Source of the DNA: an uncultured Bacilli bacterium
GTDB lineage: Bacteria; Bacillota_I; Bacilli_A; RF39; UBA660
NCBI GenBank assembly: GCA_947626515.1
Contig: CANQSL010000001.1
Coordinates: 35,527 to 99,526 of the forward strand
Direction: 5' to 3'
Length of the DNA stretch: 64,000 bases
The notes under the pieces were generated by a model that had not been told where the DNA came from, made no database searches, and worked only from the letters and a program-made list of their open reading frames with translations. The stretch's first letter is position 1. Each line of letters starts with the position of its first letter. Of this stretch, positions 2,463 through 51,716 are shown piece by piece. A program made the position numbers and the translations under genes.

Positions 2463-2819
2463 ATGAATAGACTTTTAAATATAGTTAGAATTATTGTTTC
2501 AATAATTCTATGTATAATACTAATAGTATTATTTCTTAATTTAGCAAATGTTACCACTCAATTATTTTTAACGCCATTTTTATTAGCAGCACTTGCAACA
2601 TTAGGATTATCAATATCAATATACAAAGAAAATGATTTGTTAATAGTCTTCTTTCAAAAATGTTATATAATCTCATTTCTTTTATATTGGTTTGGATTGT
2701 TAATCCTAGGGTGTTATACTGCTTTGAAAGACAAACAAATGGGAATGTTATTATTTTCAATACCATTTTGGATAGCAGGAATATTTATAATAAAGAAATA
2801 TTTTTTTGATAAAAAATAA
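2463..2819 (+). CDS. Small polytopic membrane protein (about 4 TM) inserted between addB and addA
   Basis: 118-aa hydrophobic ORF, same strand, tightly packed between the two nuclease-helicase genes. Confidence 0.4.
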   Translation: MNRLLNIVRIIVSIILCIILIVLFLNLANVTTQLFLTPFLLAALATLGLSISIYKENDLLIVFFQKCYIISFLLYWFGLLILGCYTALKDKQMGMLLFSIPFWIAGIFIIKKYFFDKK

Positions 2820-2834
2820 AAGGAGGTTATCAAT

Positions 2835-5960: not shown

Positions 5961-6023
5961 GCACTCTTGTATTTTTATTTTTAAAAAATAAGGAAATGCA
6001 AAAAATAATATAATATAATTTAT

Positions 6024-8608: not shown

Positions 8609-10273
8609 TTACATATTATTAAGTTTGTTTTTTATTTTTTTAATTTTATTTATAACTACTAATAAAGTTATGCAAAGTGTTAATAATAAACCTATATTTA
8701 AATAAAGATTATCAAATGTTTGAGGATTTTTATCAATTGTATTATCTTTACCCTTGTTTGAATTATTATTTGTTGAACTAACTTTTTTTGTTGTAGGTTT
8801 TTTTGTTGTAGTTGCTGATGAATTTTTATTGGATAAATAAATTAGTTTGTTGCCATATTTTTTTGATGTATTTTCTATTATACCAAATTCACCTAATTTA
8901 TTTGTTGAAACAACAACATTTTTAGATCCATCATATTTAGTAGGATACACTGCTATATCATTATCTATAATTACAATAGCAGCACCCTTTAAATTTGTAT
9001 AATTACTTAAAGAAGTGTTCATATAACTTGTATCAAAATATACTTCATACGTATTATTATTAATATTTACTGGGCTTTCGTACTCATTTAATAATTGTAT
9101 TTTATAAATTCCATAATCATATACGTTTTCTTTTGATAATGCTTCTATTTTATTTTTGTCACTAGTATTTTTTATTTGATGATCAACATTTAAATAATAA
9201 TTTGACCTCAAAGCATTATTACTTTTTACAACTATTTCATTTCCTAAAAGAATATTTCCATATCTAAGTAAATATTTTTCACTAAAATTATAATTATAAT
9301 CAACATCAGATAATACCAAATCTCCATCTTCATTAAATCCCTTATATAATTTAGAGGTAAATGTATTATAGTAATCTTTTTTTGTAAAAGAATTGTATTC
9401 TACTTTTTGTTGCATTTTTGGAGATTTGCTAGATAAATCAATAATTTGTTTCAATGAAGACGCTATTTCAGTTTTATTTAAAGTATCTTTATTAAATAAA
9501 TTTGTAAATGATTCAAATATATTATCATTATTCCATACATCTTCCGTTACAGTACCATCTTTAAAATATTTATTTGGATAACTGGATTTTAAAACTTTAT
9601 ACCTCTCTGCTCCAGATGAAACATACTCATTTGCATATTGATCTGCTAAAGCTTTTGAGTCTCCATATGTCACTTCTCTTATTGTATTAGTATCACTATC
9701 TCTTGTTACAAGTATTCCACTTATATTTTTGCCATTTTTATTTTTATAAGATAATCTCATGTTATTATATACTAAACTATAATTATGAGAACCTAAGGTT
9801 GAATCCATATCGATAAATTTATAACCATAATTTGAATTTATTATATTTTTAACAATTAAAGCACCATTTTTATTAGCAGTAACATTTATCTTACTTTCAT
9901 CTAATTCTTTATACAAGTAATTTACGATTACATCTTTAGTAACCGTTATGTTTATATCTTTTTTCCCTATTTGAGCAATTAAATCATATGTTCCTTCCTC
10001 TATTTCTAGTCTATTTTCTTCTTCAACTAATAAAACGTCATTATTATGAGATTCTCCTGCCCCTTCAAATCCTGCATTAGAATACACAAAACAATATTTA
10101 GAAACATTTTCTTCTATTTCTTCATCTGTTTCTAATTTTCTTACAGTTTCTATAAATGGAGATTTACAAACTAAAAATTTAAATTCTTCTTTAGTTGCTG
10201 CTTTAACAGTAACACTAGAAAACAGTATTGAAATAGCACTCAATCCTATACAAAACTTATCTATTTTTCTCAT
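8609..10273 (-). CDS. Secreted cell-wall-anchored surface protein (sortase B substrate candidate)
   Basis: N-terminal signal peptide (MRKIDKFCIGLSAISILFSSVTVKA). C-terminal NPQTF motif followed by a hydrophobic segment and a KKIKNK tail, i.e. an SrtB-type (NPQTN-like) sorting signal. Thr/Lys-rich stalk before the motif. Directly upstream of srtB. Confidence 0.65.
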   Translation of the reverse strand: MRKIDKFCIGLSAISILFSSVTVKAATKEEFKFLVCKSPFIETVRKLETDEEIEENVSKYCFVYSNAGFEGAGESHNNDVLLVEEENRLEIEEGTYDLIAQIGKKDINITVTKDVIVNYLYKELDESKINVTANKNGALIVKNIINSNYGYKFIDMDSTLGSHNYSLVYNNMRLSYKNKNGKNISGILVTRDSDTNTIREVTYGDSKALADQYANEYVSSGAERYKVLKSSYPNKYFKDGTVTEDVWNNDNIFESFTNLFNKDTLNKTEIASSLKQIIDLSSKSPKMQQKVEYNSFTKKDYYNTFTSKLYKGFNEDGDLVLSDVDYNYNFSEKYLLRYGNILLGNEIVVKSNNALRSNYYLNVDHQIKNTSDKNKIEALSKENVYDYGIYKIQLLNEYESPVNINNNTYEVYFDTSYMNTSLSNYTNLKGAAIVIIDNDIAVYPTKYDGSKNVVVSTNKLGEFGIIENTSKKYGNKLIYLSNKNSSATTTKKPTTKKVSSTNNNSNKGKDNTIDKNPQTFDNLYLNIGLLLTLCITLLVVINKIKKIKNKLNNM

Positions 10274-10404
10274 ACTACAATTACCTACCTTAATTATAGT
10301 TAATCATACTAAAAAAAAAATTACAATAAATTTGTAATTTCAAAGAAAAAAATATGTAAACTTTTTAACAATTTAAAAAGACATAAAAATAGAATCAAAT
10401 ATTG

Positions 10405-11577
10405 TTAATTTAGTCTTAAATATTTTATATCATCCATTTTAAGCGTTTGCCTTTTATCTATTATTTCTAAACATTTATTAATCCTTTCAATTAAACTTGG
10501 TAGTGGCAATTCTCCCTTTATACATTTAAGCATTTCAAATATTCTTCTCTCAGCTAAATTTACTGATTCCATATTAAAGTCAGAATTATCAAAACTAATG
10601 ATTTTTTCACTTAAATTTTTTGTTATTTTTGCTTGTGCAGAATTAGCAAAATCAGAAACAATCATTTCTCCACTATTATTCATTTGTGAAGTCAACAACA
10701 AAGTATTTGCAGTTTCCAATAATATTGGATTACTAGTCAAATCAACTTTAACTCCTTTTCTTGAATAAAAGTTAGCACGAATACCTTTTTTTCTACTAAC
10801 ATCAAGTCGATATGTACCATTAACTTTACCATTTTTCTTATGAGTTTCTATTAAAATTGAACCAACTTCTAAATTATCGTTTGAATTCAAAGATGCTTCA
10901 AAAGATACTGAAGCATTGTTTTGACTATCACTTTTGTCATACTCCTTTACGATTTTTACTAAACGCATTCCTGTATTTAAATCTCGAATTATCTCAATAT
11001 CATTAAACTTTTCTATTAATATATTATTTTTAAATGATACTTTAAAATAATCGTTTTTATATCTTTGCTTTAAATCACTAGTCAATCGACTATTTATAAT
11101 TGATATATCAAAATCATTCGATAATATATCAAATGTTATATCATAAGTAATTCTTGTTGGATGTTGCATAGTTTGTTTTTGACCAATTTTGTCAGATTTA
11201 GAAAACTTAATAATACCATTATTATTAAAAGAAAAAGCTCTTGCAGATTTACGTGAATTCATATCAATCCAGTCAATTCGTCCAAACTCACATTCATATT
11301 TCTTACCACAATCATCTTCTAATATTACTCTTCTAAGTGGCAAGCCGTTTCTCTTTTCTGGATAATATACATTTTCCAACTTATATTGATCATAATATTT
11401 TTTTTCAATATCTTGAACAACATATCTTTCTGTATTATATAAAGGTATACTATATGCATCTAAGCATTGTTCCCACCAAGAAGCATTCCAAGCACCAACA
11501 AATTCTTCTACTTTTTGCATTTCATCTAATACTTTTTCAACAGCAATTAATTGAGTTTCTTCATCTAAATTTTCCAT
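10405..11577 (-). CDS. Hypothetical protein (about 390 aa), no recognisable domain
   Basis: Long ORF. The ATG (MENLDEE) is preceded by a GGGGGA RBS. The track start at 11595 is an upstream TTG. Confidence 0.4.
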   Translation of the reverse strand: MENLDEETQLIAVEKVLDEMQKVEEFVGAWNASWWEQCLDAYSIPLYNTERYVVQDIEKKYYDQYKLENVYYPEKRNGLPLRRVILEDDCGKKYECEFGRIDWIDMNSRKSARAFSFNNNGIIKFSKSDKIGQKQTMQHPTRITYDITFDILSNDFDISIINSRLTSDLKQRYKNDYFKVSFKNNILIEKFNDIEIIRDLNTGMRLVKIVKEYDKSDSQNNASVSFEASLNSNDNLEVGSILIETHKKNGKVNGTYRLDVSRKKGIRANFYSRKGVKVDLTSNPILLETANTLLLTSQMNNSGEMIVSDFANSAQAKITKNLSEKIISFDNSDFNMESVNLAERRIFEMLKCIKGELPLPSLIERINKCLEIIDKRQTLKMDDIKYLRLN

Positions 11578-11895
11578 ATATATTCCCCCTATCAAAAAAA
11601 TTTTTATATGCTTAAAATTATAATTTTTTTGTTGTTTTTTTCTCCTCTTCTATTAGAATTTCCTCTACTTTAGTTCCAACCAATATTTGAACTTTATTAC
11701 ATTTAGTACAAACTCTTTTAGCATACATTTGAGGACCAACAATTTTTACATCATCTGTAAATATAGTTTCTTCATATTCTGAAGGAATACCATAACTTCT
11801 AATCCAAAGACTATATTCATGATCGCATTTATTTATCCGACTTTTATTTCACGTCTAAAGTAATTATAAAGAAAGAAAAAAATAATGTCAATTTT

Positions 11896-12147
11896 TTACA
11901 TTTTTTTATTCTTTTTAACTAAATTTATAATTGTTAATACTGGATATATAAAAAAAGCTTCAGATAAAATTAAATAAGGTACAGCTATAAGTAGAAATAA
12001 TCCCCATTGATCCCTATGCACAATAGCATCTATAAATAAAATTAAAAATATTATTCCTAAAATTAAACTAACAGTAAATGCTGTTATTTTTATAATTTTC
12101 TTCATTAATATCCTCCTATAAAATAATCTTATCGTCTTCACAATCAT
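11896..12147 (-). CDS. Small 2-TM membrane protein
   Basis: 83-aa hydrophobic ORF on the same strand as its neighbours. Confidence 0.3.
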   Translation of the reverse strand: MIVKTIRLFYRRILMKKIIKITAFTVSLILGIIFLILFIDAIVHRDQWGLFLLIAVPYLILSEAFFIYPVLTIINLVKKNKKM

Positions 12148-12249
12148 AAATAGTAAAAATATGTAAGAAAAACAAATAAATCTAAAACTTTTTTATTAAT
12201 TAAAATATAGAAAATATTTCACTTTTATCTATTGTTGAAAAGTAAAATA

Positions 12250-12780
12250 TTATTTAATATAGTCTTTATTTTCTTTTGCAAGTTTAATTATATCTTCTAT
12301 AAAATCATTTTTTGAACTTGTATACATTTTTCTATTATCTGAATAAATAGATGCTAATTTTATTTTTAAATTTTTATAATCTTCACACGCTTTTTTATAT
12401 TTATTTAAGTAATCCCTAAATAATATAGTGTTTTTATATCTTTTACTATCTATTTCCATTACATGAATAAAGTGAGTTCTATTATCTATAGAACCCTTTC
12501 TAATTAAAATCTCATCATCTACAGAATCTTCTTTAATAGAATACGGTTCTTTTTCAAAGTTTTGTTTTACTTTATTAAAATCATTTAAACTGTTAACTGC
12601 AACTGCAATATCTATAATAGGTTTTGCACATAATCCAACTATACTAGTAGAACCAATATGTTCTATTTTTATTGCTACATTACCAAATAAATTTTCTAAA
12701 TTAATTTTTTCTTCTTCAAACATATTTTTCCAATTTGCATTATATTCTTCTAATTTAACAGTTCCAACTTTTAGTCCCAT
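12250..12780 (-). CDS. GrpB-family (nucleotidyltransferase-fold, UPF0157) protein
   Basis: HIGSTSI...KPIIDI motif characteristic of GrpB/DUF-type nucleotidyltransferase-like proteins. Confidence 0.6.
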   Translation of the reverse strand: MGLKVGTVKLEEYNANWKNMFEEEKINLENLFGNVAIKIEHIGSTSIVGLCAKPIIDIAVAVNSLNDFNKVKQNFEKEPYSIKEDSVDDEILIRKGSIDNRTHFIHVMEIDSKRYKNTILFRDYLNKYKKACEDYKNLKIKLASIYSDNRKMYTSSKNDFIEDIIKLAKENKDYIK

Positions 12781-12873
12781 ACAACCTCCTTTTTCAACCT
12801 TATTTATAAATTAATTTCTTAATTTATAACTTTCTTAAAAATATGTAGTATTATATCAAAATTATATCTATAT

Positions 12874-13713
12874 TTAAATATATTTAATATTATCTATAAT
12901 TGTTAAATTAGGCATTCTTTTAATAAGTGTTTTCTTTAACTCTGTTTTTTCTTTACCAAAATGAGCAAAAGGGTGATTACTTTCATCTACAAAACTTTCA
13001 CTAGTTAAGCCAAAATCTTCTAATAATAAATCATGAATTCGTCTTGTTATTTCTATTTCTCTTTTATCTTCATCACTTAATTCTTTTTTACTATCCAATT
13101 GTTTAAATCGTTCTTCGTATTCTTGTATTTTTCTTGCATGATCGAATTCCCAAGTTGTACCAGGCCCACCTACAATACCAGGACGAGATGGATACGGATT
13201 TCGTTGATCATATAATCTCTCTAATATTCTCATTACTCTATCTAATTCGGCTTCTCTCAATTCTTTACTTTCAAATGTTTGAAATAATGAAACATCCCCA
13301 ATATTCAATGTCTTAAAACCACTTGGAACTTTAGGAGTATTCCAACCACTAGAATGAATTTCTTTGTAATCAAAATCAAATAATTCTACGCTTCTATCAC
13401 TTAATTCAGTTGATACACTCAACCTTTCCAATACATCATTATTTCCAGATAAAATGAATTTATCATTTTGTTGATTAAATAAGTTTTGAACTCTATTGTA
13501 GATGTTATAAATTGCTATTTTTTTATATACTTCTAATTCAGCAAGTGCCTTTCTATCAGAATCACTAATATACTCTCTTATAACAGAAAATTCTAATTCT
13601 ATTAAAGAATTCAAATAATTTAGCATAGGTTCTGTAAGTATTCCTCTATATTCTTTTAAAGATTCTAATAATTCTTCTTTTGTTTTTATTCTATTTGTAG
13701 TTATAAATTCCAT
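12874..13713 (-). CDS. Hypothetical protein (about 279 aa) with locally elevated GC
   Basis: ORF with GGGAGGA RBS before the ATG (MEFITT). Segments such as ccaggcccacctacaataccaggacgagatgg are far more GC-rich than the window average. Confidence 0.4.
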   Translation of the reverse strand: MEFITTNRIKTKEELLESLKEYRGILTEPMLNYLNSLIELEFSVIREYISDSDRKALAELEVYKKIAIYNIYNRVQNLFNQQNDKFILSGNNDVLERLSVSTELSDRSVELFDFDYKEIHSSGWNTPKVPSGFKTLNIGDVSLFQTFESKELREAELDRVMRILERLYDQRNPYPSRPGIVGGPGTTWEFDHARKIQEYEERFKQLDSKKELSDEDKREIEITRRIHDLLLEDFGLTSESFVDESNHPFAHFGKEKTELKKTLIKRMPNLTIIDNIKYI

Positions 13714-13901
13714 CAATTATCCTCCCGATTACTATATATTATAGCATTCATATTTTTTGATGTAAATTAAAAAAGTTTTAATAATATTGCAAAAATAAAA
13801 AGAAAAAAGGAAGAGCATTAATCTCTCCCAAAATATAGATAATCAAACTAAAAGTTTGTTTAATACCACTATGGTGCCCTAAAGGAAGAAGTACAACAAC
13901 T

Positions 13902-14585
13902 TTAATGATTACAAACATCTATAAAATATTTAAATATATTATTCATATTTTCATCAATTTTATATAAACTTTCTGGATGAAATCTTACACCCATATAGAA
14001 TTTTTTGCATTTGGATTCCACTACTTCAGCATAGCCGTCTTCACAAGTTGCTACTTTTTCTAATAAGGGATAACTATGAACTGCTTTTTTATGCCTCGAA
14101 TTTACTTTTATTTCTTTATGCTTAATAATATTATAAAATTTTGAAGATGGATTTATATATATATTATGGACATATTTTTCTGTTATTTGATTATGTTTTT
14201 TAGGATTAGAAATTTTATATGTCGTACCACCCAATGCTCTAACTATGACGTTTTGCCCACAACAAATACCTAAAGTTGGAATATCATGATCATAACAATA
14301 TTTTGCTACTATCATCTCGTAGTTATCACATGCTCCTCCACCTTGAAATATAATTCCATCACATAGATTAATTTGTGTGATTAATGAATCATATTCTTCT
14401 TGTGATAGATTATTAACCCAATTATCTTCTACATCTAACTTTTCATCTCTTGGTAACAAGATGCCAATCGCTATTGCTCCATTATCGAATACAGATTGCT
14501 TGATTTCATCCCTTATGTACATGTCAGGCCTTATAGAATCTTTATTATAGTGTTTTGAAACTATACCTATTATAACTTTTTTCAT
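13902..14585 (-). CDS. Class I glutamine amidotransferase-like / peptidase C26 (gamma-glutamyl hydrolase-like) protein
   Basis: Catalytic Cys context GICCGQNV and His context GVRFHPE typical of C26/GATase1. Confidence 0.6.
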   Translation of the reverse strand: MKKVIIGIVSKHYNKDSIRPDMYIRDEIKQSVFDNGAIAIGILLPRDEKLDVEDNWVNNLSQEEYDSLITQINLCDGIIFQGGGACDNYEMIVAKYCYDHDIPTLGICCGQNVIVRALGGTTYKISNPKKHNQITEKYVHNIYINPSSKFYNIIKHKEIKVNSRHKKAVHSYPLLEKVATCEDGYAEVVESKCKKFYMGVRFHPESLYKIDENMNNIFKYFIDVCNH

Positions 14586-14685
14586 TTATTGTACCCACTT
14601 TCTTTGTATTATTAAATATTATCGCATATTGTTTTTGTCAATATACAAGTGTGTTTCCTAGTGTGTTTCAAATTTAAAGAGTATT

Positions 14686-14708
14686 AAAAAAGTCCTATTT
14701 TAAGGACG
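14686..14708 (-). terminator. Putative rho-independent terminator downstream of ssrA
   Basis: On the - strand GTCCT-taaaat-AGGAC followed by TTTTTT, 13 nt after the tmRNA CCA end. Confidence 0.4.
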
Positions 14709-14720
14709 TTAATTTTTAAA

Positions 14721-15076
14721 TGGTGGAGCCGAGCAGAATTGAACTGCTGTCCAAAATACTTTCTTACTTAGCGTCTACAAGTTTAGTTAGAGCTATATAT
14801 TCATTAATAAAAAAGAGTCTAACATCTATTTATTAATATAGTTTAATAAAATTCAATAATTATTCTAAACAAAATAATTATTATATCTTATATATATGAA
14901 CCTTAATTTAATCTATAAGCAAAAAAAATTAAAGTGCGCCATTGCCAAATTAGGCAAATGCTAAAGCGCTATTTGTATTATAATTTTTGTCAGTTAATTT
15001 TAAACTGTTGCCACTTAGGATTGGCCACCACTTGCAACTAAATAGAAATATATTCTGTCGAAACCATTACGACCCC
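14721..15076 (-). ncRNA. ssrA: tmRNA (SsrA), about 356 nt
   Basis: On the - strand the 5' end GGGGUCGUAAUGGUUUCGACAG closely matches the Bacillus-type tmRNA start GGGGACGUUACGGAUUCGACAG. 5' GGGGUCG pairs with the 3' acceptor CGGCUCCACCA. The 3' end GGACAGCAGUUCAAUUCUGCUCGGCUCCACCA has a T-arm (AGCAG/UUCAAUU/CUGCU) and ends in CCA. An internal reading frame ends ...NSALAFA-UAA (tag-peptide-like). Confidence 0.8.
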
Positions 15077-15103
15077 GTGTCAACAAATATAACACAAAAT
15101 TAA

Positions 15104-15406
15104 TTAATCATCAACTATTTTTATTATTAATTCACCATTCTTAGTATATAAATATTTTTCTCTTGCATACTTTGCAGCATAATTTGGATCTTGCAATTTA
15201 ACAACATCTGATTCTAATATTTCCTTCTCAGATAATAAATTATTATATTTTTCTTCTAACTCTTTTTTAATTTTCTTATTAGCTAAAATTTGATTCCAAT
15301 AATTAAAGGTAATATAACCCATATATCCTATCAAACAAACAAATACTAAAAATAAAACAAACATTCTTCTCTTAGCAAACTTATTTTTTTTCATATTTGT
15401 CACCAT
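15104..15406 (-). CDS. divIC: Septum-formation initiator DivIC/FtsB-family protein
   Basis: N-terminal TM plus coiled-coil (LEEKYNNLLSEKEILESDVVKLQD). Lies in the conserved yabP-yabQ-divIC arrangement. Confidence 0.65.
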   Translation of the reverse strand: MVTNMKKNKFAKRRMFVLFLVFVCLIGYMGYITFNYWNQILANKKIKKELEEKYNNLLSEKEILESDVVKLQDPNYAAKYAREKYLYTKNGELIIKIVDD

Positions 15407-15441
15407 AATAAATATAGCATAAAATTTTTAATAATCAATAT

Positions 15442-15663
15442 TTATTTATATATAAATATGTAAATAAATGTAAATATGATAATTAAATAATTATAATAAT
15501 TAAATACGCCTAAAAAGAAAATATAATATAAATAAAAATATATAATAAATAAAATTAATAATATAAAAGATTTATATATATTTTTTATTTTTAATCTTTT
15601 TAAAATATAAAAAAATATTATCCAATAAAATAAGGTTAAACATATATTAATAAGATTTTTCAT
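15442..15663 (-). CDS. yabQ: YabQ-like spore-cortex membrane protein (short)
   Basis: Small polytopic ORF overlapping the yabP stop, conserved position. Confidence 0.4.
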   Translation of the reverse strand: MKNLINICLTLFYWIIFFYILKRLKIKNIYKSFILLILFIIYFYLYYIFFLGVFNYYNYLIIIFTFIYIFIYK

Positions 15664-15947
15664 TTAAATAATTTGCTAAAGAATCCTTGTTCTTTGTCTC
15701 CATCAATACCTTCCAAATATTGAACATTATTTATTTTGCCTTTTATGCAAATATTTCCTTCATTAGTATCCAATTTAATAAGTTCCAATCCACTACCTTT
15801 TATCAAAATATTGCCCATAACAGATTGAATTGAAAATTCATTTTCGTTAAAACTATTTACCTTTTTTGTGCCAGTAATAAATATATTACTTCTCTCTAAG
15901 ATTTTAACACTATGACTTATTACATTACTATCAAAATTTGATTCCAT
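15660..15947 (-). CDS. yabP: Sporulation protein YabP
   Basis: YabP-family sequence (FITGTKKVNSFNENEFSIQSVMGNILIKGSGL) in conserved position upstream of yabQ. Confidence 0.7.
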   Translation of the reverse strand: MESNFDSNVISHSVKILERSNIFITGTKKVNSFNENEFSIQSVMGNILIKGSGLELIKLDTNEGNICIKGKINNVQYLEGIDGDKEQGFFSKLFK

Positions 15948-15989
15948 ATAATCACCTACATAATTATATGCAATTAAAAAAATTATATT

Positions 15990-16009
15990 AAAAAAACCAC
16001 AATGTGGTT
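15990..16009 (-). terminator. Weak hairpin plus T-run after spoVG
   Basis: CCAC-aat-GTGG followed by a 6-7 T run on the - strand. Confidence 0.3.
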
Positions 16010-16286
16010 ATTCTTCAACAGTTTCTTCTGCTTTATTATATTCTTCGATTATAGCATCTTCAAACATTTTTCTTGCATCAGAATTAATTGGATGAGCTAT
16101 ATCTCTATAATCTCCAGTTGCTGTTTTTCTACTTGGCATTGCTATAAACAATCCATTATCACCTTCGATAATTCTTATATCATGAACTGCAAAAGAATCA
16201 TCGATTAAAACAGATGCTTTTCCTTTCATTCTAGAGCCTTCTTTTTCAACTTTTTTTACATTTACTGATGTTATTTTCATTAACAT
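16008..16286 (-). CDS. spoVG: Septation protein SpoVG
   Basis: High similarity to SpoVG (VHDIRIIEGDNGLFIAMPSRKT...DIAHPINSDAR). GAAAGGAG RBS before MLMKITS, whereas the track start at 16352 is upstream. Confidence 0.85.
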   Translation of the reverse strand: MLMKITSVNVKKVEKEGSRMKGKASVLIDDSFAVHDIRIIEGDNGLFIAMPSRKTATGDYRDIAHPINSDARKMFEDAIIEEYNKAEETVEE

Positions 16287-16357
16287 GCACACTCCTTTCA
16301 AGTTACTTTTGAACTCTATAACCATTGTAAACCAATTTATCAATAAAATCAATACTT

Positions 16358-17131
16358 TTATCTTGGATATCCCACATACATCATTCCATTTGATTTAAGC
16401 CCACCTATTCCATCTTTACCATACTTTGTTTTATTTAACAAATTTAATAAATTTATCTCTTTATTTTTTTCCGTTAAAGCTATATTTACCGCTATTATGG
16501 CAGGATCTAAAGCGTGTATATTTATTCTTTTAGGGCTTGATGCAAAATTTGCACCTGATTTAATTAAAGCCTCATAATCGCTTTGGCAAGCTCCTGCAAT
16601 TATAACCAACTTTTCATGGCTTTTTTCATATTCTCTTGCTGCATAAACTGCATTAACAAAATTTTTAGAATTTTTATAATTATTTATATTTGATTTATCA
16701 CTATTTTTATATATTGAATCATGCCCTGTAATTATTAAAATATCTGGATTATATTTTTTCAATAATTTGACAATATTAGTAGGAATTTCACTTTCTTTTA
16801 TGTGTTCTCCTATAGCAAAAACGTTTGCTTTGTTATAGAAACTCAAACATCTTGATAGATAATCTTTATCTCCATCTATATGTAGTATTTTGGCTGGTAA
16901 ATAAAAATATTCATTTCTATCTAAATTATCTCTTTCTACTATCTTTTCTAAAAGAGTATCGTCTTCATTTTTATATTTACATAATAATAAATCATCTTTT
17001 AAAGAATCAGCATATAATCTTATATCAACTCCCTTTAATATATATAGGGTTTCATTTATATCAATAATTTTAAATATTGTATCGTTATTATAACTTTTTC
17101 TTGTAACATAATCACCTATTTTAAAATTCAT
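16358..17131 (-). CDS. yabG: Sporulation-specific protease YabG
   Basis: YabG-family N-terminus (MNFKIGDYVTRKSYNNDTIFKI) and conserved neighbourhood (ksgA...yabG...spoVG). Confidence 0.7.
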   Translation of the reverse strand: MNFKIGDYVTRKSYNNDTIFKIIDINETLYILKGVDIRLYADSLKDDLLLCKYKNEDDTLLEKIVERDNLDRNEYFYLPAKILHIDGDKDYLSRCLSFYNKANVFAIGEHIKESEIPTNIVKLLKKYNPDILIITGHDSIYKNSDKSNINNYKNSKNFVNAVYAAREYEKSHEKLVIIAGACQSDYEALIKSGANFASSPKRINIHALDPAIIAVNIALTEKNKEINLLNLLNKTKYGKDGIGGLKSNGMMYVGYPR

Positions 17132-17175
17132 TATATCACCATTTAATTATATTATTTAACTTGAAAATAATACTA

Positions 17176-18672
17176 TTAAACGCAGAATTTGTTAACTCTA
17201 TTCATATTAACTTTAAAAATAATATATGTTTCTTTTGGAGAATATTCACTCTGATATACAAAAGACAAATATCCATTATTTATTATTTCCCAATAAGAGT
17301 TACATCCACCGCCACTACAAAGTAAATAAATATTTTTATCCTTTATAAATTTAGTGGAAACTAAATTTTTTATTTTATTTCCATAAAATGTCTTATATTC
17401 ATAATTCCAACTAACATATGAAAATTCATCATCTATATCAAGTCCATAAAAATATAAATTTTTAGAATCATCAATATATGGTAAAATTGCAGCAGTATTC
17501 GGCATATTTTGTGCTAATATAATGCTATTATCCTCTAAATAGTAATTAATAAAATCTGCTGTTTCATGTGAACTTGAAAATAATGAATTATAATCTGATT
17601 TCATCATTTCATATATCCCATTTGAATACATAATTACTAAACATAAAGCTACAATTCCCATAATTCCCCCATATATTCTTTTAAACCAACTTCTCTTATT
17701 TTTTTCTCTTTGTATCCAAAAAATAAACATAAATATAAATATTAAAGAATCAGTTCTTTGTTGGGAAATTGCATATATATAATGATAAACATATATTTGG
17801 AACAAAATACTTAAGTATAATATTGGCATATTCTTTCTATAAAATATAGTCTCATATAATATAAAAAGTGTAAGCAATACTAATAGTGCAATATTATAGC
17901 CCAAATCACCATGACCAAAAACATAATAAGCTATATTACTTGTCCAATAAAATACATCTACTTTTCTATCTAAATGTACTAAATTGTTTTTGGCACCGCC
18001 AAGACCAATTGGAATAACAAATAATAGTAACCCCACAATAGCAAGAATTAAACAAAATAATATTTTCTTTTTTTCTGATTTTGTATTTGTTTTTCTTCTA
18101 GTTATAACTTCATTCCAAAAGAATTGTAAGTATAGAATTCCAACCATACCAAGCATTATTATATGAGTCCATGCTAACATTAAAATTGATAACACATATG
18201 GTAAAGGTTTTTCATGCCTATTTTTATAATTTATCGCAATTAATGTAATGGCTAAAGGTATTAAACAATAATTTCTTGCTATAGCAGAATATGTGTACAT
18301 AAATGGAGAAGAAAAAATTATTACCAATTTTGTAAACATATTAAATGGAGCCTTTTTTAAAATTAAAAGTGCTGTAAACCACATAATTAAATAACTTATT
18401 AAATTCATTGTAAAATATGGAAATCCTAATTTTGCAAACGGTGATAAAATTAAACTCCATAAACAAGGATGCGCCTCATAATACATTTGTTTTATCATTC
18501 CAAAAATGCTTAAATCCCTGCCTATTAACCAAGCTTGTGCCTCGTCTCGCCAAGGTTCATGAGTATTTAAATATTTCATACTAATCATAGTATAAATAGA
18601 AAGAATTAATATATTAAATTTATTTTTCCAAATTATATTCCATATTTTTTTTAGATAATTCATAAATACCAC
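17176..18672 (-). CDS. Polytopic membrane protein, putative GT-C-fold glycosyltransferase (ArnT/PMT-like)
   Basis: About 12 predicted TM helices. Early loop motif HEPWRDEAQAW resembles the DE-containing first loop of GT-C transferases. Last gene of a three-gene operon. Confidence 0.4.
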   Translation of the reverse strand: MVFMNYLKKIWNIIWKNKFNILILSIYTMISMKYLNTHEPWRDEAQAWLIGRDLSIFGMIKQMYYEAHPCLWSLILSPFAKLGFPYFTMNLISYLIMWFTALLILKKAPFNMFTKLVIIFSSPFMYTYSAIARNYCLIPLAITLIAINYKNRHEKPLPYVLSILMLAWTHIIMLGMVGILYLQFFWNEVITRRKTNTKSEKKKILFCLILAIVGLLLFVIPIGLGGAKNNLVHLDRKVDVFYWTSNIAYYVFGHGDLGYNIALLVLLTLFILYETIFYRKNMPILYLSILFQIYVYHYIYAISQQRTDSLIFIFMFIFWIQREKNKRSWFKRIYGGIMGIVALCLVIMYSNGIYEMMKSDYNSLFSSSHETADFINYYLEDNSIILAQNMPNTAAILPYIDDSKNLYFYGLDIDDEFSYVSWNYEYKTFYGNKIKNLVSTKFIKDKNIYLLCSGGGCNSYWEIINNGYLSFVYQSEYSPKETYIIFKVNMNRVNKFCV

Positions 18673-32776: not shown

Positions 32777-33190
32777 TTATCTTATTTTATTAAATATTTT
32801 TGACATATTTTTTTGAAATTTTTCTTTATTTATATCATACATTTGTTCGTATATTGTTTTATTGTATTTATTTGTTATATTGCCTTTCTTTAAAATATAA
32901 TATACTTTTTTTATTCTAGCTTCTGAGATAGCTTCTTTGCACATATCGCACGGTTCCAACGTAACGTACATTTCACAGTCTGATAAATTCCATCTTTTTA
33001 ATTTTTTAAAGCTTTTTAGTAAACACAATATTTCTGCATGATATAATGAATTTCTTTTTATATTTTTTTGATTATATGCTTTTGCAATAATTTTGTTACT
33101 TTTTAAAATTAAAGCACTCACTGGTATTTCATTTTTTTTATAAGCTTTATTTGATAATTTGAATAATTCTTTTGATATTTTTGTATTCAT
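32777..33190 (-). CDS. tadA: tRNA-specific adenosine deaminase
   Basis: HAEILC and LEPCDMC deaminase zinc motifs. Real start probably MNTKISKELF. Confidence 0.8.
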   Translation of the reverse strand: MNTKISKELFKLSNKAYKKNEIPVSALILKSNKIIAKAYNQKNIKRNSLYHAEILCLLKSFKKLKRWNLSDCEMYVTLEPCDMCKEAISEARIKKVYYILKKGNITNKYNKTIYEQMYDINKEKFQKNMSKIFNKIR

Positions 33191-33318
33191 AATTTCTCCA
33201 TAAAAAAAGTGCACATTAATATTATTTAATATGGCTGCTACGTTCCCGTCCTGACCAGGTAATAAAAATATTAATTGCACGATATAATATTATCATTTTT
33301 TTTAAACTATATCAAGTT

Positions 33319-33426
33319 AATGTTTCACGTGAAACATTCTGAATACTAATTATTAAAAAACAATGTTTCACGTGAAACATTGTTCTAATCGTTTTATGCT
33401 TTTTATATGTTTCACGTGAAACATAT
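33319..33426. promoter_or_regulatory. Three perfect 20-22 bp palindromes (AATGTTTCACGTGAAACATT; CAATGTTTCACGTGAAACATTG; ATATGTTTCACGTGAAACATAT) phased about 43-44 bp apart
   Basis: Read directly from sequence at 33319-33338, 33361-33382 and 33405-33426. They lie in the intergenic region between the gyrA stop and the tadA-dnaX operon start. Confidence 0.6.
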
Positions 33427-33428: not shown

Positions 33429-35891
33429 TTAGCTATCTTTGCTTTCAGAATCTTCTTCATTTGCAATTAAATCATTTTTAGTTACAAGACTTATAGTTGA
33501 TACTTCTTGTTTTTCTTTTAAATTAATTAATTTGATTCCTTGAGTAACTCTGCCTAATTGACTAATTTGATCAATTGGAAGCCTAATTACCATTCCTGAA
33601 TTAGTGATTATCATAAGATCACTATCTGGAATAGTAATTTTAAATGATGCAATAGAACCATTTTTATCTGTAATATTTAAAGCTTTAACACCTTTTCCAC
33701 CTCTTTTAGTAGTTCTATACTCGCTTATCAAAGTTTTCTTACCATAACCTTTTTTAGTTACTATAAGGATATTATCATTTAAAGTACCAATCTCAATTCC
33801 TGTACACGTAGCTCCTTCACTTAAATTAATACCTCTAACTCCAGATGCAGTTCTTCCCATTACTCTTATTTCATTTTCATTAAACACTACCATTCTTCCA
33901 TCAGAAGAGCCCATTAAAATATAATCTTCTCCTAAAGACTTTTTAACACCTATTAATTCATCATTATCTCTCAACGTTATACAAATTTTACCTGTTGCTC
34001 TAATATTATTAAAATCTTCAATTAAAGTACGTTTACTAAATCCTTTTTTCGTTCCAAAGATTAAATATTTAGCTTTATCATCCTTACTTATCTTTATAAC
34101 AGAATTTATAAATTCATCTTTTTCGATAGGCAATAAATTAATTATTGGCAATCCTTTTGCTTGTTTGCTAAATTCAGGGATTTCGTATCCTTTTATACGA
34201 TAAACTTTACCTTTATTACTAAAGAATAAAACATAATCATGTGTTGAAATATCAATCATTTGTTCTACAAAATCCTCTTCGTTAGTTGACATTCCCTTTA
34301 CACCTACCCCACCTCTATTTTGAGACTTATAAGTATCAAGTGCTAATCTTTTTATATAACCTTTATTAGTTAAAGTAACTATTACTTCTTCTTCAGGTAT
34401 TAAAGATTCATCTTCTATATATTCTATTGCGGTCATATCGATTTTAGTTCTACGATCATCAGCATATTTATCCTTTATTTCTAACAATTCATCTTTTATT
34501 ATTGCTAATATTTTATCTCTAGATGCTAAAATAGATTTATACTCTTCTATTTTTTGCAATAACTCTTTTAATTCTTCTTCTATTTTTGCTCTCTCTAAAC
34601 CTGTTAATCTACGAAGTTTTAATTCTAATATCGCATCAGCTTGAATATCCGTTAATCCGTATTTAGATATCAATTTTTGTTTTGCAATAATATCAGTTTC
34701 AGATTCTCTAATTATTTTTATAAAATCATCTAAATTATCTAAAGCGATTTTGTACCCTTCTAAAATATGTACTCTTTTTTCTGCTTTATCTAATTCAAAT
34801 CTCGTTCTTCTAATAATAATTTCTTCTTGATAATTAATATATTTTACAATAATATCTTTTAAACCTAATGTTTTAGGAACTTTATTATCAATCATTAAGA
34901 ATATTATTCCATATGTTGTTTGAAATTGAGTGTGTTTATACAAATTGTTTAAAACAACTTGTGGATTAGCATCTTTTTTTAAAGTTATTGTAATCTTTAC
35001 TCCATTTTTTAAATCTGTATGATAATCTGAAATACCATCTATTATTTTGTTATGAACTAACTCAGCAACTTTAGTTTTCAAGTCAGATACATTTACTCCA
35101 TATGGTACTTCATCAACAATAATATAATTTCTTCCATTTTTTTCTTCAATAGTTGCCTTACTTCTTATAGTTATTGTTCCTCTACCAGTTTCATATGCTT
35201 TTTTTATACCATTATTTCCTAAAATTATACCTCCTGTTGGAAAATCTGGTCCTTTTATATACTGCATAAGTCCTAACGTATCTATTTCAGGATTATCTAT
35301 ATAAGCAACACAACCATCAATTACTTCTCCTAAATTATGAGGGGGAATGTTTGTAGCCATTCCTACAGCTATTCCCATAGTACCATTTACTAAAATATTA
35401 GGAAATCTTGAAGGTAAAATCTCTGGTTCCCTTTCAGATTCATCAAAATTTGGTTTAAAATCTACAGTATCTTTATTAATGTCTCTTAATAACTCTAAAG
35501 ATATTTTTGATAATCTAGACTCAGTATAACGCATAGCTGCTGCGCCAGATCCTGCTATATTTCCAAAATTTCCATGACCATCTACTAAACAGTTTCTATA
35601 GCTAAAGTCTTGGGCCATTCTAACCATTGCCTCATATATACTAGAATCACCATGAGGATGATATTTACCCATAACATCTCCGACTATACGAGCAGATTTT
35701 TTATGAGGTTTATCTGGAGTGTAGCCTGATTCATTCATTGACCATAAAATTCTTCTATGAACAGGTTTTAAACCGTCTCTCAAATCTGGTAATGCTCTTG
35801 AAACAATTACACTCATGGAATATTCAATAAACGAAGAATTAATTTCATCTACTATATTGTTTTCTTCTAATCTATCTCTACTATTATTCAT
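33429..35891 (-). CDS. gyrA: DNA gyrase subunit A
   Basis: AMRYTE active-site Tyr region, GyrA box and beta-pinwheel C-terminal domain. Confidence 0.95.
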
Positions 35892-39009: not shown

Positions 39010-39471
39010 TTATTTAGCTTTTCTTTTTTGAAAAATTGATTCTAATCTATGAGATTTTAAAATTTGATTATTTAATACACAAAACGATGTATTAATTTCC
39101 AATTTTTCACCATTATCAAATAGTATTATTGAAGAATTTTTATTAAAGTCATAATAATAATCTTCAATATTATTTAAAGAAATCCACATACAATTTTTTA
39201 ATCTTGGACTTGTAGTTGGAAAAAATATTATATTATTATCTTCTTGAACAACTATTGGGGCTTTATAACTAATACCAGTTAATGACATTGTTCCTTTTTG
39301 CCTTCCTTCTATAGAACTTCCATAATACCTACAACTTTCATCCATAATATTCTTGGGTGAATTATTAATAATTATTGAACAATCTTTTTCTATAACTTTG
39401 GACTTTTTTTCACCTATAGGTATTATTGCTAATGTTTCTTTAGATATTTCATAATCTTTCAACCTATTCAC
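39010..39471 (-). CDS. ComK-family protein (competence transcription factor-like)
   Basis: Aligns by eye with B. subtilis ComK: IIPIGEKKSKVIEKDCSII / CRYYGSSIEGRQKGT / YKAPIVVQEDNNIIFFPTTSPRLKNCMWIS versus VLPEEIDGKICSKIIEKDCVFYV / CRFFGSSYAGRKAGT / HKPPIMVDPSNQIFLFPTLSSTRPQCGWIS. Confidence 0.6.
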   Translation of the reverse strand: MNRLKDYEISKETLAIIPIGEKKSKVIEKDCSIIINNSPKNIMDESCRYYGSSIEGRQKGTMSLTGISYKAPIVVQEDNNIIFFPTTSPRLKNCMWISLNNIEDYYYDFNKNSSIILFDNGEKLEINTSFCVLNNQILKSHRLESIFQKRKAK

Positions 39472-40834: not shown

Positions 40835-42178
40835 TTAAGTAATCTTTGCTTTAATTTCTTTTATTTGATTTTGTAATTCTTCATTATTTATCAAATCTTT
40901 AGTAACTTTTTCGATAGCATGTAATATAGTGGAATGATCTCTATTTCCAAATTCTAAACCAATTCTAGTTGTTGTTTCTTCTGTAGTATTCCTACAAATA
41001 TATATCGCTATTTGTCTAGCATTATTAATGTTTGCAGTTCTTTTCTTACTCTTTAAGCTTTCAACGGTTATATCGAAATAATCTGCGACGGCTTTTTGAA
41101 TTTTCCCAATATTATTTGTTGAATAAACTGAATTTCCTAAGTAATCTTTTAAGGCTTCAGTAGCAAATTCTAGGTTTATTTCTTTTGGATTATACATAGC
41201 TACATAAGCATAAAGTCTATTTATTGCGCCCTCTAAATGTCTTACATCACTTTCGCAATTATTGGCAATATATTCTATTACTTCATTTTTTACTAACTTT
41301 GCAACTTCATGTCCAGACATTTTATCTTTAAGAATCTTACATCTTAATTCAAAGTCTGGAGGAAAAATATTTGCGGTTAATCCCCATCTAAATCGAGTTA
41401 CGAGTCTATCTTCTAATAATTTTAAATCATCTGGAGATCTATCTGAACTGATGACTATTTGTTTATGAGAATCATATAGTGTATTAAACGTGTGGAAAAA
41501 TTCTTGTTGTGTTTTTTCAGCACCACCCAAAAATTGTATATCATCGATTATTAATACGTCTATATTTCTATATTTATCTTTAAAATGTTGAACAACATCA
41601 AAATTATCTGTCTCTTTTTTATTTATACCTATAAAATCGGAAATAAAAGTTTCGCTGGTTGTATATAATACATTTTTATCTGAATGTTCCACAATATAAT
41701 TACCTATAGCGTGCATTAAATGTGTTTTTCCGAGTCCACTTTTTCCATGTAAGAATAAAGGATTATATACTTTGCCTGGCTGTTCTGCTACAGCAACCGC
41801 TGCCGTTTGAGCAAGTCTATTAGTATCACCTATAACATAATTTTCAAACGTATATTGAGGTTTTAAATTAGTTTGAAAAGTTTCTTTTTTTTCTACTTTA
41901 TTGACAGTTATGTTTTGAGTATCACTTATAATATCTTCTTCTACTACAAATGAAATATCATAGGTTTTTCCTGTCAATGTTTTCAATATGCTTTCTATTT
42001 CATCATAATAATTGTTATTTAGAAAGTCTTTATGAAAGGTCATTGGGACAATAATTGTTATAGAATTATCTGTCATTGAGGCTATTTTAGTATCTTTAAA
42101 CCAAGTATCAAATGAAACACTAGAAATTTTTGATTTAATAACTTCTAAAAAAGTATTCCAAGAGAACTCTTCATTCAT
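40835..42178 (-). CDS. dnaA: Chromosomal replication initiator DnaA
   Basis: AAA+ motifs GKSGLGKTHLMHAIGN and LIIDDIQFL, plus the C-terminal DNA-binding domain. GGGGTGG RBS before MNEEFSW. Confidence 0.9.
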   Translation of the reverse strand: MNEEFSWNTFLEVIKSKISSVSFDTWFKDTKIASMTDNSITIIVPMTFHKDFLNNNYYDEIESILKTLTGKTYDISFVVEEDIISDTQNITVNKVEKKETFQTNLKPQYTFENYVIGDTNRLAQTAAVAVAEQPGKVYNPLFLHGKSGLGKTHLMHAIGNYIVEHSDKNVLYTTSETFISDFIGINKKETDNFDVVQHFKDKYRNIDVLIIDDIQFLGGAEKTQQEFFHTFNTLYDSHKQIVISSDRSPDDLKLLEDRLVTRFRWGLTANIFPPDFELRCKILKDKMSGHEVAKLVKNEVIEYIANNCESDVRHLEGAINRLYAYVAMYNPKEINLEFATEALKDYLGNSVYSTNNIGKIQKAVADYFDITVESLKSKKRTANINNARQIAIYICRNTTEETTTRIGLEFGNRDHSTILHAIEKVTKDLINNEELQNQIKEIKAKIT

Positions 42179-42196
42179 AAAACCACCCCGCTCCAT

Positions 42197-42499
42197 AGAA
42201 TTTTAATTACTAAGAATATTTTAAACCACTTTTGTTAAAAAAGAAAGTATCAAATTTATAAAAACTTGATTTCAACAAGATATTAACATAGTTTTAAACA
42301 AGAAAAGTCCCTAACATACAGACAAAAACATAGTTATTAACAATTTCCACAATTTATTATTAACAGTAAAAAAAATTATTAACAAATACACGTTAATAAC
42401 TTTTTTTTAGAATAATAATTAAATTTTTGATTTTTAATTGACTTAGTTAAAAAAATATAATACAATAAAAAAGCTTAAAGAAGAGGTGGAGGTGCAATT
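42197..42499. promoter_or_regulatory. Putative oriC / dnaA-rpmH intergenic region with clustered DnaA-box-like 9-mers
   Basis: Four copies of TTATTAAC(A) (42334, 42357, 42376, inverted at 42392) plus ATTTCCACA at 42343 (8/9 match to TTATCCACA). Lies in the canonical rpmH/dnaA divergent position. Another TTATTAACA sits 3' of dnaA at 40826. Confidence 0.5.
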
Positions 42500-44549: not shown

Positions 44550-44662
44550 GCATTTTTTTAATAAAATTATTTCCCGGGAAATAATTTTATATAACATAGA
44601 ATAAATTAATTTACTTTTAAACTTAAATCTACTATAATACATTTTGTGAAGTGGTGATATAA

Positions 44663-48715: not shown

Positions 48716-49765
48716 ATGAATGTAGAATCACAAGTACAATATATAAATGTTGAGAACATTATACCTAATAGATTTCAACCAAGACTTACATTTGATGAAA
48801 ATGCTTTAAGAGACTTAGCAAGTTCAATAAAAGAACATGGAATAATTCAACCTTTGGTGTTGAGAAAATTATCTGAAGACAAATTTGAGATTATAGCAGG
48901 AGAGAGAAGATATAAAGCAGCTCAAATTGCAGGATTAGAAAATGTTCCCGCTATTATTGCAAATTTAGATGACAATGCTTCTGCAGAAGTTGCATTAGTT
49001 GAAAATTTGCAAAGGAAAGATTTATCTCCAATAGAAAAAGCTAAATCTTATGAAAAGCTTTTAAATAGAGGAAATACTCAAGAAGAACTTGCAAAAAAAA
49101 TGGGTGTTTCTCAATCTTCAATTGCAAATACTATAAGATTATTAAACTTAGAACCAGAAACTCAAGATGCTTTGATGAAAGAAAAAATATCTGAAAGACA
49201 TGCTAGAAGCTTATTGCAAATAAAAGATCATGATAAACAGATTGAAATGTTAAATAAAATTATAAATGAAAGATTAACTGTTAGGCAGTTAGATGAACAA
49301 ATAAAAAAAATGAATGATGCACCAGAAATGGAAAGTTTTTCACTAACAGAAGCAATTGATAATCTTCCAGAAATGGAAACTTTTAGTATTGAAGATAAAC
49401 CAGTTTTAGAATCAGAGAATATAGAAGATTCAAAAGAAGTTGTAGCAATTGATGAAACTGAAGATTTACAAGATGCTATTAATGATTTAGATATTTCTAA
49501 ATTAATTGAGAATGCTCAAAAAGATTTAAAAAATAAATATGAAATATACGATATTCCAACTGCTGAAGAAGCTTCTAATGATGACGAAAAGAAAGAAGAT
49601 ATAAATATAGATAATTCTCTAAAAATTGAGAATGGAAATTTAGATTCAGTTATAAATGCAATAAAAGAATTAGAAGAAAAAATATCTCAAGCGGGCTTTA
49701 AAATTGATACAGAAGACTACGATTTTGAAGATTTATATCAAATAATAATAAAAATTGAAAAATAA
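48716..49765 (+). CDS. parB: ParB/Spo0J (or Noc)-family partition protein with acidic C-terminal extension
   Basis: ParB box IIAGERRYKAAQIAGLENVPAII and an HTH (ELAKKMGVSQSSIANTI). No adjacent parA. Confidence 0.75.
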   Translation: MNVESQVQYINVENIIPNRFQPRLTFDENALRDLASSIKEHGIIQPLVLRKLSEDKFEIIAGERRYKAAQIAGLENVPAIIANLDDNASAEVALVENLQRKDLSPIEKAKSYEKLLNRGNTQEELAKKMGVSQSSIANTIRLLNLEPETQDALMKEKISERHARSLLQIKDHDKQIEMLNKIINERLTVRQLDEQIKKMNDAPEMESFSLTEAIDNLPEMETFSIEDKPVLESENIEDSKEVVAIDETEDLQDAINDLDISKLIENAQKDLKNKYEIYDIPTAEEASNDDEKKEDINIDNSLKIENGNLDSVINAIKELEEKISQAGFKIDTEDYDFEDLYQIIIKIEK

Positions 49766-49796: not shown

Positions 49797-51716
49797 TTAT
49801 TCACTAGGTTCTGTACCTTTTAAAAAGTAAAATAATGCACCTTTTCCATTATCAACATACTCTCCAGTTACGGGGTCTAAATATACAGCTTCAACATTTT
49901 GTGGTTTTTTATACCAAGATGAGTCTTTATCTTTAAGATATCCTTCTACAGAATCTACCCATATACTTTTAGTTATTTTTGAATAAGTTGATTCAACATT
50001 TAAATTATTATCATTACCTGTCCAAACTAAACATAGAATATCTGGATTATATCCAACTAGCCAATAATCATTATCTGTTGTACCACTTTTTAATGCATAT
50101 TTTCTAGTTAATTTATCAGCAATAGAAAGGACAGTTGGAGAATTATAACTTATAAATTTAGAATTGTATGTATTAGACATCATCTCATTTAAAATATATA
50201 AATAATTTGTATTTAAAACTAAATCTTTTGTTTGTTTGTGTTGATAGAGTATATTACCATTTAAATCTTCAATTTTTTCTATAAAATATATATCATTTTT
50301 ATAACCTCCGCTTGCTAAAGTATTATAAGCGTTAGCGTAATCTAATAAATTTATTTCTGTAGCGCCTAAAGCTAAAGAAGGTAAAGCTTCTAATTTTTCT
50401 TTTAAACCTACTAATTTCATAGTATCAACTAATTTATCTTCACCCAAAAATAAATGTGTTTTTACAGCAAAAATATTATCTGAATAAGCAAGTGCAGCGG
50501 ACATTGTTATTTCCTTATTTGCATATCTTTTTGCATAATTAGTTGGAGAATAGGTTTTATTGTTAGAAAAAACAAAGGTAGTTTCTTCACTTAGAAATTT
50601 GGATGCACTAGTTAAGTTATTTTCTAAAGCAGTGTAATATAGAAAGGGCTTTATAGTTGAACCCACTTGTCTTTTTGCCATAATAGCTCTATTATATTGA
50701 CTGGTTTTATAGTCTTTTCCTCCAGCTAAAGCTATTATTTTTCCTGAAGTTGGTTCAATCATTATACTAGCTACTTGCGTATCGTCATCTTTCATATTGT
50801 TTATAATGGATTCTTCTAATTTAGTTTGAGCAGAAATATCTAAATTAGTATATATTTTTAATCCTCCGGAATCAATTAGACTTTCAGGAATACCATTTAG
50901 AGTTTCTAGTTCGTCTATTACGGCGTCTTGATAATACATTAAAGTCTGTAGATTATTAGTTGTGCTTTTCCCATAAATTTCTAATTTGTTCTTAAATAAA
51001 TTGTTATATGTTTCACGGTCTATTTTTTTGTTATTTAGCATGCTTAATGCAACAATTTTTGCTCTTTCTATAGATTCGTCATAATTTGATATAGGGTTAT
51101 AATTATTTGGAGATTTCGGAATACCTGCTAAAATAATAGCCTCTTCTAAAGATAAATCGCTAGCTTTTTTATTAAAATAATATTGACTAGCTTCACTAAT
51201 TCCAAAACAACCTTGTCCAAAGTTTATAGTATTTATATATCCTTCTAATATTTCATTTTTATCATAATGTGTTTCGAGCTTTATTGTAAGAAATGCTTCT
51301 TGGATTTTTCTTGACCAAGTTTGATCAAATGTTAAATACATATTTTTAATATATTGTTGACTTATTGTACTTCCACCTTGTGTTATATGTCCATTTTTAA
51401 TATTTAAATACATAGATTTCGCTATTCGAGGTATATCAAATCCTAAATGATTGAAAAAATGTTTATCTTCTGTACTTATAACTGCATCTAAATAGTATTG
51501 ACTAACATCATTTAAATTTACCCATTCACTATTTCCAGAACCTTGATATACTAATTTATTATTATTGTCATAAATGTATAATGAGTTAGACGATTTTAAA
51601 TCTATACCAGGAGATAAATATGCATAAACATATAAGCCTCCAATGCATACAATAAAAGTGATTATAATAAAAATAAGTGATTTAAACAAAAATATAATCT
51701 TTTTCAAAATACTCAC
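49797..51716 (-). CDS. Class A penicillin-binding protein (transglycosylase/transpeptidase)
   Basis: GT51 motif QGGSTISQQY and transpeptidase motifs STIKP, SDN and KSGTT. N-terminal TM anchor. Confidence 0.8.
   Translation of the reverse strand: MSILKKIIFLFKSLIFIIITFIVCIGGLYVYAYLSPGIDLKSSNSLYIYDNNNKLVYQGSGNSEWVNLNDVSQYYLDAVISTEDKHFFNHLGFDIPRIAKSMYLNIKNGHITQGGSTISQQYIKNMYLTFDQTWSRKIQEAFLTIKLETHYDKNEILEGYINTINFGQGCFGISEASQYYFNKKASDLSLEEAIILAGIPKSPNNYNPISNYDESIERAKIVALSMLNNKKIDRETYNNLFKNKLEIYGKSTTNNLQTLMYYQDAVIDELETLNGIPESLIDSGGLKIYTNLDISAQTKLEESIINNMKDDDTQVASIMIEPTSGKIIALAGGKDYKTSQYNRAIMAKRQVGSTIKPFLYYTALENNLTSASKFLSEETTFVFSNNKTYSPTNYAKRYANKEITMSAALAYSDNIFAVKTHLFLGEDKLVDTMKLVGLKEKLEALPSLALGATEINLLDYANAYNTLASGGYKNDIYFIEKIEDLNGNILYQHKQTKDLVLNTNYLYILNEMMSNTYNSKFISYNSPTVLSIADKLTRKYALKSGTTDNDYWLVGYNPDILCLVWTGNDNNLNVESTYSKITKSIWVDSVEGYLKDKDSSWYKKPQNVEAVYLDPVTGEYVDNGKGALFYFLKGTEPSE

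Follow-up and report, generated by a model that had tools for sequence, protein, structure and literature searches.

Three palindromes between gyrA and ffs as probable parS sites near the replication origin of an uncultured Bacilli bacterium

The locus described here is best read against the parS site of Bacillus subtilis (TGTTNCACGTGAAACA), the site for Spo0J/ParB: the 16-bp palindrome is identical and likewise origin-proximal, and B. subtilis, a sporulating Firmicute, shares with our sequence the gene orders dnaA-dnaN-recF-gyrB-gyrA and rsmG-noc. The parS sites of B. subtilis lie singly, spread across the origin-proximal region, whereas our locus packs three candidate sites into 108 bp of one spacer and belongs to a clade without soj-spo0J beside noc. 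Dense chromosomal clusters are already known: Myxococcus xanthus has 22 parS sites that span about 3 kb and lie some 4 kb upstream of parA (PMC3899335), and this dense array near the origin has a mean spacing of about 140 bp that resembles the spacing in many of the relatives examined below. M. xanthus, however, belongs to another phylum, its array lies beside parAB and its consensus is TGTTCCACGTGGAACG, while our locus has only three copies; it would be another case of the same arrangement, in an unstudied lineage.

Two further systems bear on the comparison. The sopC locus of the F plasmid consists of a 43-bp unit repeated 12 times in tandem, and each unit contains an inverted repeat of 16 bp (PMC3597684). 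These are close-packed palindromes of the ParB family at a pitch that equals the 43/44 bp of our array, but SopB reads another sequence and our array is not a tandem repeat. The shared pitch is probably a coincidence, since 43 bp is not conserved in relatives and the array is not tandem; a true tandem-repeat centromere of the sopC kind is found in relatives such as L063 (loci of relatives are given by L numbers) and not in our sequence. The second is the Noc-binding site, NBS (TATTTCCCGGGAAATA), a related 16-bp palindrome read by a paralogue of ParB; both kinds of site occur in our sequence and are interleaved in relatives. Jalal et al. reported that parS and NBS differ at half-site positions 1 and 6, which are G and A in parS and A and C in NBS (PMC7383237).

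Three palindromes beside gyrA

The window (the whole 64-kb stretch of DNA that was analyzed, 24 % GC) holds three perfect palindromes, seen in the sequence and recovered by a repeat finder: AATGTTTCACGTGAAACATT at 33319-33338, AACAATGTTTCACGTGAAACATTGTT at 33359-33384 and ATATGTTTCACGTGAAACATAT at 33405-33426. Their center-to-center pitch is 43 and 44 bp. A preliminary description of this DNA had given the same three palindromes and the same spacing; its middle copy, 33361-33382, is enclosed by the longer palindrome reported here, and its distance of 3 nt between the third copy and the gyrA stop codon (33429-33431) is right in that the two adjoin, the gap being 2 nt. The genes around the palindromes all lie on the minus strand and are, by Pfam, dnaA, dnaN, a ComK-family gene, recF, gyrB, gyrA, a tadA-like deaminase, dnaX, ybaB and recR. 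The features that concern us first are these:

40835-42196, minus strand: dnaA (Pfam), 8.8 kb from the array
33429-35891, minus strand: gyrA, upstream flank of the array (Pfam DNA_topoisoIV and DNA_gyraseA_C)
33405-33426, unstranded: putative parS copy nearest gyrA, 16-mer 33408-33423 in a 22-bp perfect palindrome
33359-33384, unstranded: putative middle parS copy, 16-mer 33364-33379 in a 26-bp perfect palindrome
33319-33338, unstranded: putative parS copy nearest ffs, 16-mer 33321-33336 in a 20-bp perfect palindrome
33287-33315, minus strand: predicted ffs promoter (TTGATA, 17 nt, TAATAT, extended -10 TG), from a consensus scan, with a presumed function
33200-33286, minus strand: ffs, small SRP RNA (4.5S/scRNA-type), which borders the array downstream (Rfam RF00169, 55.7 bits; gathering score 40)
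32777-33190, minus strand: tadA-like deaminase with corrected start, ATG at 33190 and RBS GGAG at 33196-33199 (Pfam and sequence reading)

All three palindromes share the 16-mer TGTTTCACGTGAAACA. A search of the window that tolerated up to three mismatches gave exactly three matches to it (0.21 expected by chance), and none of 100 shuffles reached that number. The feature is real and non-random. TRF found no tandem repeat over 33319-33426; the spacers are unrelated, and the palindromes alone recur.

This 16-mer represents the parS consensus of ParB/Spo0J in fully symmetric form, and each palindrome matches that consensus (TGTTNCACGTGAAACA) at 16 of 16 positions; the earlier view that the motif matches no known operator does not hold. 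Exactly this 16-mer has been used, with a citation of Livny 2007, to locate parS in genomes (PMC10197239), and it has served together with TGTTCCACGTGGAACA as a parS probe (PMC3597684). Among the full-text literature matches listed for it, all concern ParB/parS, Noc, or the organization of origin and chromosome. The three palindromes carry G at position 1 and A at position 6, the parS bases that separate parS from NBS. We rejected an identity as NBS: the sites read TGTTTCAC (G1/A6), and an NBS needs A1/C6 (TATTTCCC).

The position relative to the replication origin agrees with this identity. Cumulative GC skew has its minimum near 42 kb, where dnaA diverges from rpmH, rnpA, yidC, jag, mnmE, mnmG and rsmG; since the skew minimum and the dnaA/rpmH-rnpA divergence mark oriC, we place it at about 42.2-42.5 kb, 8.8 kb from the palindromes, on the basis of GC skew, gene order and four TTATTAACA-like boxes. 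No cluster of the canonical DnaA box TTATCCACA was found between dnaA and rpmH, and a scan at one mismatch or fewer did not pinpoint oriC. In its place, at 42330-42410, stand about four TTATTAACA-like repeats that may be a DnaA-box variant specific to the lineage. The ComK-family gene (Pfam 8e-43) lies at 39010-39471 between dnaN and recF, a place held in Bacillus by the small S4-like gene yaaA.

Both GC and AT skew also flip sign near 8 kb (window 1-8000), at the point where the genes change orientation; those on the plus strand at 117-7445 are AddB/AddA-like and UvrD-like nuclease/helicase genes. This second flip suggests a local inversion or insertion and not the terminus, because it is far too near oriC. 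At 8609-18672 are several large ORFs (554, 396, 280 and 498 aa) without a Pfam match at E <= 1e-5, which adjoin a sortase-domain protein and a tmRNA gene (14721-15076, tag DKNYNTNSALAFA).

Sequence, origin-proximal position and conservation (below) all agree with chromosomal parS, and we consider it very probable that the three palindromes are such centromere-like nucleation sites for ParB/Spo0J, with the cognate ParB encoded outside the window. Of the earlier proposal that they bind a cooperative dimeric regulator or a nucleoid- or replication-associated protein, the dimeric binder associated with nucleoid and origin survives, and the helical phasing offered with it does not. What had been an "unknown operator" would thereby become an ordinary annotation, the parS centromere of the chromosome, and such an annotation helps in locating oriC, and with it the origin domain, in MAGs from this uncultured gut lineage.

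The immediate surroundings were also revised. The preliminary description had the scRNA/4.5S gene as absent and the palindromes as filling the only non-coding DNA up to tadA; both statements are wrong, for Rfam finds ffs between the palindromes and tadA. The mechanical 167-aa tadA ORF (32777-33280) runs through ffs, and translation probably begins at the ATG at 33190, which GGAG precedes. As drawn by Rfam, the 5' boundary of ffs runs into the predicted -10 box, and the true 5' end of the RNA is probably a few nucleotides further in. The 16-mer of the copy at 33319-33338 stops 5 nt short of the -35 box of ffs, on its upstream side.

The spacer in related genomes

A DnaN-based scan, with one genome kept per species, gave 80 loci from uncultured low-GC gut "Bacilli"/"Tenericutes" MAGs (best DnaN identity 81 %), in which dnaX and ffs served as the downstream anchors. 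The gyrA-ffs spacer of about 55 related genomes contains 1-11 parS-type sites, and at least two wherever the gap is fully covered. Every locus that reaches past gyrA with spacer to inspect has parS-type sites in its gyrA-dnaX gap, except L080, where 417 bp of spacer are covered and hold none. Outside this gap the 1.37 Mb of relatives' origin-region loci yielded four stray matches, weak or extra, and the 64-kb window has no further 16-mer. These site counts exclude a dispersed repeat: the motif is not scattered as a generic repeat would be, and it is strongly conserved in close relatives, so that neither of the outcomes named beforehand as arguing against a functional element was observed.

Among the closest relatives the A+T-rich spacer is unalignable, yet the 16-mers in it are perfect. 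That they are conserved while the DNA around them evolves fast indicates selection at the 16-mers for a presumed sequence-specific binder. The conserved unit in fact extends to 18 bp, A-TGTT[T/C]CACGTG[A/G]AACA-T: across 247 distinct sites the flanking A is present in 98 % and the flanking T in 97 %, against a background of about 40 %, and the extended consensus holds in both sub-clades (A 95-100 %, T 91-100 %).

In the closest relatives the gyrA stop is followed by a G+C-containing terminator hairpin, then by the parS sites from first to last, and then, 5-17 nt past the last site, by the ffs promoter; in all six of the more distant relatives tested with Rfam, ffs directly follows the array. 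Promoter-like boxes equivalent to those of the window precede ffs in relatives too. The arrays in relatives are up to 2.3 kb long. Sites also occur at the edge of, or within, gyrA: L020 (16730) and L026 (16718) each carry one further perfect parS within gyrA itself, some 650 bp ahead of the end of the coding sequence, and in L003 (17216) the first site of the array overlaps the last gyrA codons.

We propose that the lineage has kept the gyrA-ffs spacer, bounded by the terminator of gyrA and the promoter of ffs, as what would be its centromere. It gathers all parS sites of the origin region in one spacer, where the copy number ranges from 1 to 11 and the sites are often homogenized tandem repeats that frequently alternate with NBS.

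ParB-family proteins and NBS sites

If the palindromes are parS, a ParB should read them, and the window offers one candidate together with two sites of the other kind:

48716-49765, plus strand: sole ParB-family gene in the window, Noc-type (ParB_N and HTH_ParB), directly after rsmG
44568-44583, unstranded: NBS, perfect 16/16, in the jag-mnmE spacer, conserved in L001-L009
31690-31705, unstranded: NBS TATTTCCCGGGAAATA, perfect 16/16, inside dnaX, conserved in L001-L018

The 349-aa product of this gene scores 204 bits against solved Noc structures and 166-171 bits against Spo0J; on the NCBIfam Noc model it reaches 273.5 bits, below the 315-bit cut-off. Residue-level alignment to the positions of Jalal et al. 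gives Q173, T179, N184 and R201 at the specificity positions, and the Noc orthologues in relatives all read Q-K-x-R at these four. Because it combines Q173 and R201 with separate perfect NBS sites in the same window, the protein is best predicted to be a Noc with sites of its own, and not the parS reader. With ffs present, the tadA start moved and the ParB-family gene read as a putative Noc, the local gene map is corrected.

The protein has T179/N184 and no permissive lysine, against K179 in relatives, and V replaces the conserved K171. It is without the N-terminal extension of roughly 25 aa, an extension that in B. subtilis Noc carries the membrane-targeting helix, and it has a long acidic low-complexity linker followed by the conserved C-terminal domain (...YQIIIKIEK); the versions in relatives are 434-464 aa long. 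The NBS inside dnaX is kept across different reading frames, which encode ISREI in the window, L011 and L016 and YFPGN in L001, L003, L004, L006 and L009. Its persistence despite differing frames and peptides suggests selection on this putative site at the level of DNA.

Neither a second ParB paralogue, an R173-type ParB nor a ParA-type Walker motif is encoded in the 64-kb window. The wider lineage has a canonical Soj and an R173/G201 Spo0J. In L072, soj-spo0J lie near the origin and noc is not alongside; the top 120 homologues of its Spo0J are 73-100 % identical to it, and R173...G201 is present in all 119 of these in which the motif was found. Four more proteins sampled among the 120 all had the context of the clade with noc-soj-spo0J. 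In five contigs other than that of L072, rsmG, noc, soj and spo0J follow one another much as they do in B. subtilis. A comparison with L081, L084, L085 and L087 places soj-spo0J after noc in one clade of relatives. In the clade of the window a convergent penicillin-binding-protein gene follows noc in place of soj-spo0J, which indicates a probable rearrangement breakpoint directly after noc. In the window itself this is a class A PBP gene at 49797-51716, convergent with noc and followed by rpoE, prfA, prmC, spoIIR, mntP and murA. No Spo0J of this clade was recovered; exact look-ups with proteins of the window gave nothing or contigs of ~2 kb or less.

There are thus two ways to account for the reader of the sites. 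In the first, the window's own Noc-like protein would bind both parS and NBS, Spo0J having been lost in the clade. In its favor, the window has no other gene of the ParB family, noc in this clade lacks the soj-spo0J pair that normally follows it, and ParB variants of dual specificity can be selected experimentally (PMC7383237). The protein nevertheless carries Q173 and R201, the two residues that specify NBS; in the deep mutational scan R173 was invariant in parS-specific variants, and those of dual specificity mostly had T or S at 201, not R (PMC7383237). Perfect NBS sites are, moreover, conserved alongside the parS sites, whose flanking consensus is the same as in clades with Spo0J. We regard a dual reader as unlikely, and the Noc-like protein as the main parS binder was rejected for its NBS-type residues and its own NBS sites. 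In the second account, which we prefer, the clade has a cognate ParB of the R173/G201 type encoded elsewhere in the genome; we infer this because the sites are perfectly conserved and share their extended consensus with clades that carry Spo0J.

Spacing, proposed loading and composite arrays

Neighboring sites in relatives are 24 to 644 bp apart. A Rayleigh test at a period of 10.5 bp gave p = 0.69 on 130 distinct spacings; the full set of 222 spacings gave p = 0.003, a value driven by repeated identical spacings in tandem arrays. Helical phasing was rejected on the ground that the signal is gone once this redundancy is removed, and with it goes the earlier suggestion that the sites are held on the same face of the DNA, a phasing that relatives do not conserve. 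We propose that the 43/44-bp spacing is not itself functional.

Variable spacing also weighs on an explanation in which the palindromes are operators of a dimeric transcription factor for ffs and tadA-dnaX-ybaB-recR. As might be expected of an operator, a copy is always present 5-17 nt ahead of the -35 box of ffs. Against this, the sequence is exactly parS, copy number runs from 1 to 11 in arrays of up to 2.3 kb, neither spacing nor phase is conserved, and the motif stands at no other promoter in the window; an operator function is very improbable. The tadA-dnaX regulon of the preliminary description found no support, copy number and position relative to the ffs promoter both being variable.

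It is just as improbable that the palindromes are only RNA or DNA hairpins (gyrA terminators or mRNA-stabilizing stem-loops): gyrA in the window lacks a separate terminator, the T-run TTTTTTAATAATT comes after the middle palindrome on the minus (coding) strand and the RNA folds strongly (z = -8), but a terminator scan finds none, close relatives have a distinct G+C-rich terminator hairpin ahead of the first parS, a structural role would keep the pairing and not the exact 16-mer across genera, compensatory variation is not seen in relatives, and a strong fold is the trivial outcome of three identical palindromes. As an intrinsic terminator the middle palindrome has its T-run, but its stem is A+T-rich and the terminator scan is negative; it may double as the terminator hairpin of gyrA.

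If the palindromes are parS, established ParB biology gives an outline of what they would do. A ParB dimer would recognize each 16-bp palindrome (here effectively 18 bp), bind CTP, close into a clamp and slide onto the flanking DNA. A partition complex would in this way be built over the origin region 8.8 kb away, where it would recruit the SMC condensin and, where ParA/Soj exists, segregate sister origins; three sites within 108 bp would give a higher loading rate at a single locus. Clamp loading with CTP, spreading and SMC recruitment at these particular sites are expected by analogy with known ParB systems.

In at least 22 relatives the gyrA-ffs spacer contains two or more NBS mixed with parS, and in several of them the spacer consists of regular tandem repeats, each unit carrying a single parS and a single NBS; those with mixed arrays include L063, L061, L062, L068, L073, L054, L077, L055, L059, L067, L024 and L019. 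In the limited literature searched we found no report of mixed parS/NBS arrays, which does not prove novelty. A tentative reading, which we hold to be possible though doubtful, is that the gyrA-ffs spacer is a dedicated and expandable centromere, in many members a composite parS+NBS repeat that would load ParB and Noc clamps side by side. The clade of the window would then represent a minimal form, with three parS sites, the NBS moved 1.7 kb away into dnaX, and soj-spo0J unlinked from noc. If this is true, the composite arrays offer a natural system for the question of how two related CTP-dependent clamps share or compete for DNA, and although they lie in relatives, outside the window, they are the most interesting lead of this analysis.

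L063 (17363-18702) may serve as the example. Its array is a tandem repeat of 125 bp in 10.7 copies (91 % identity), in which 11 parS and 11 NBS alternate at a period of 125-126 bp, each NBS 58 bp after its parS. Periods of about 125-127 bp recur in L061, L062 and L068, and periods of about 76 bp in L054 and L077.
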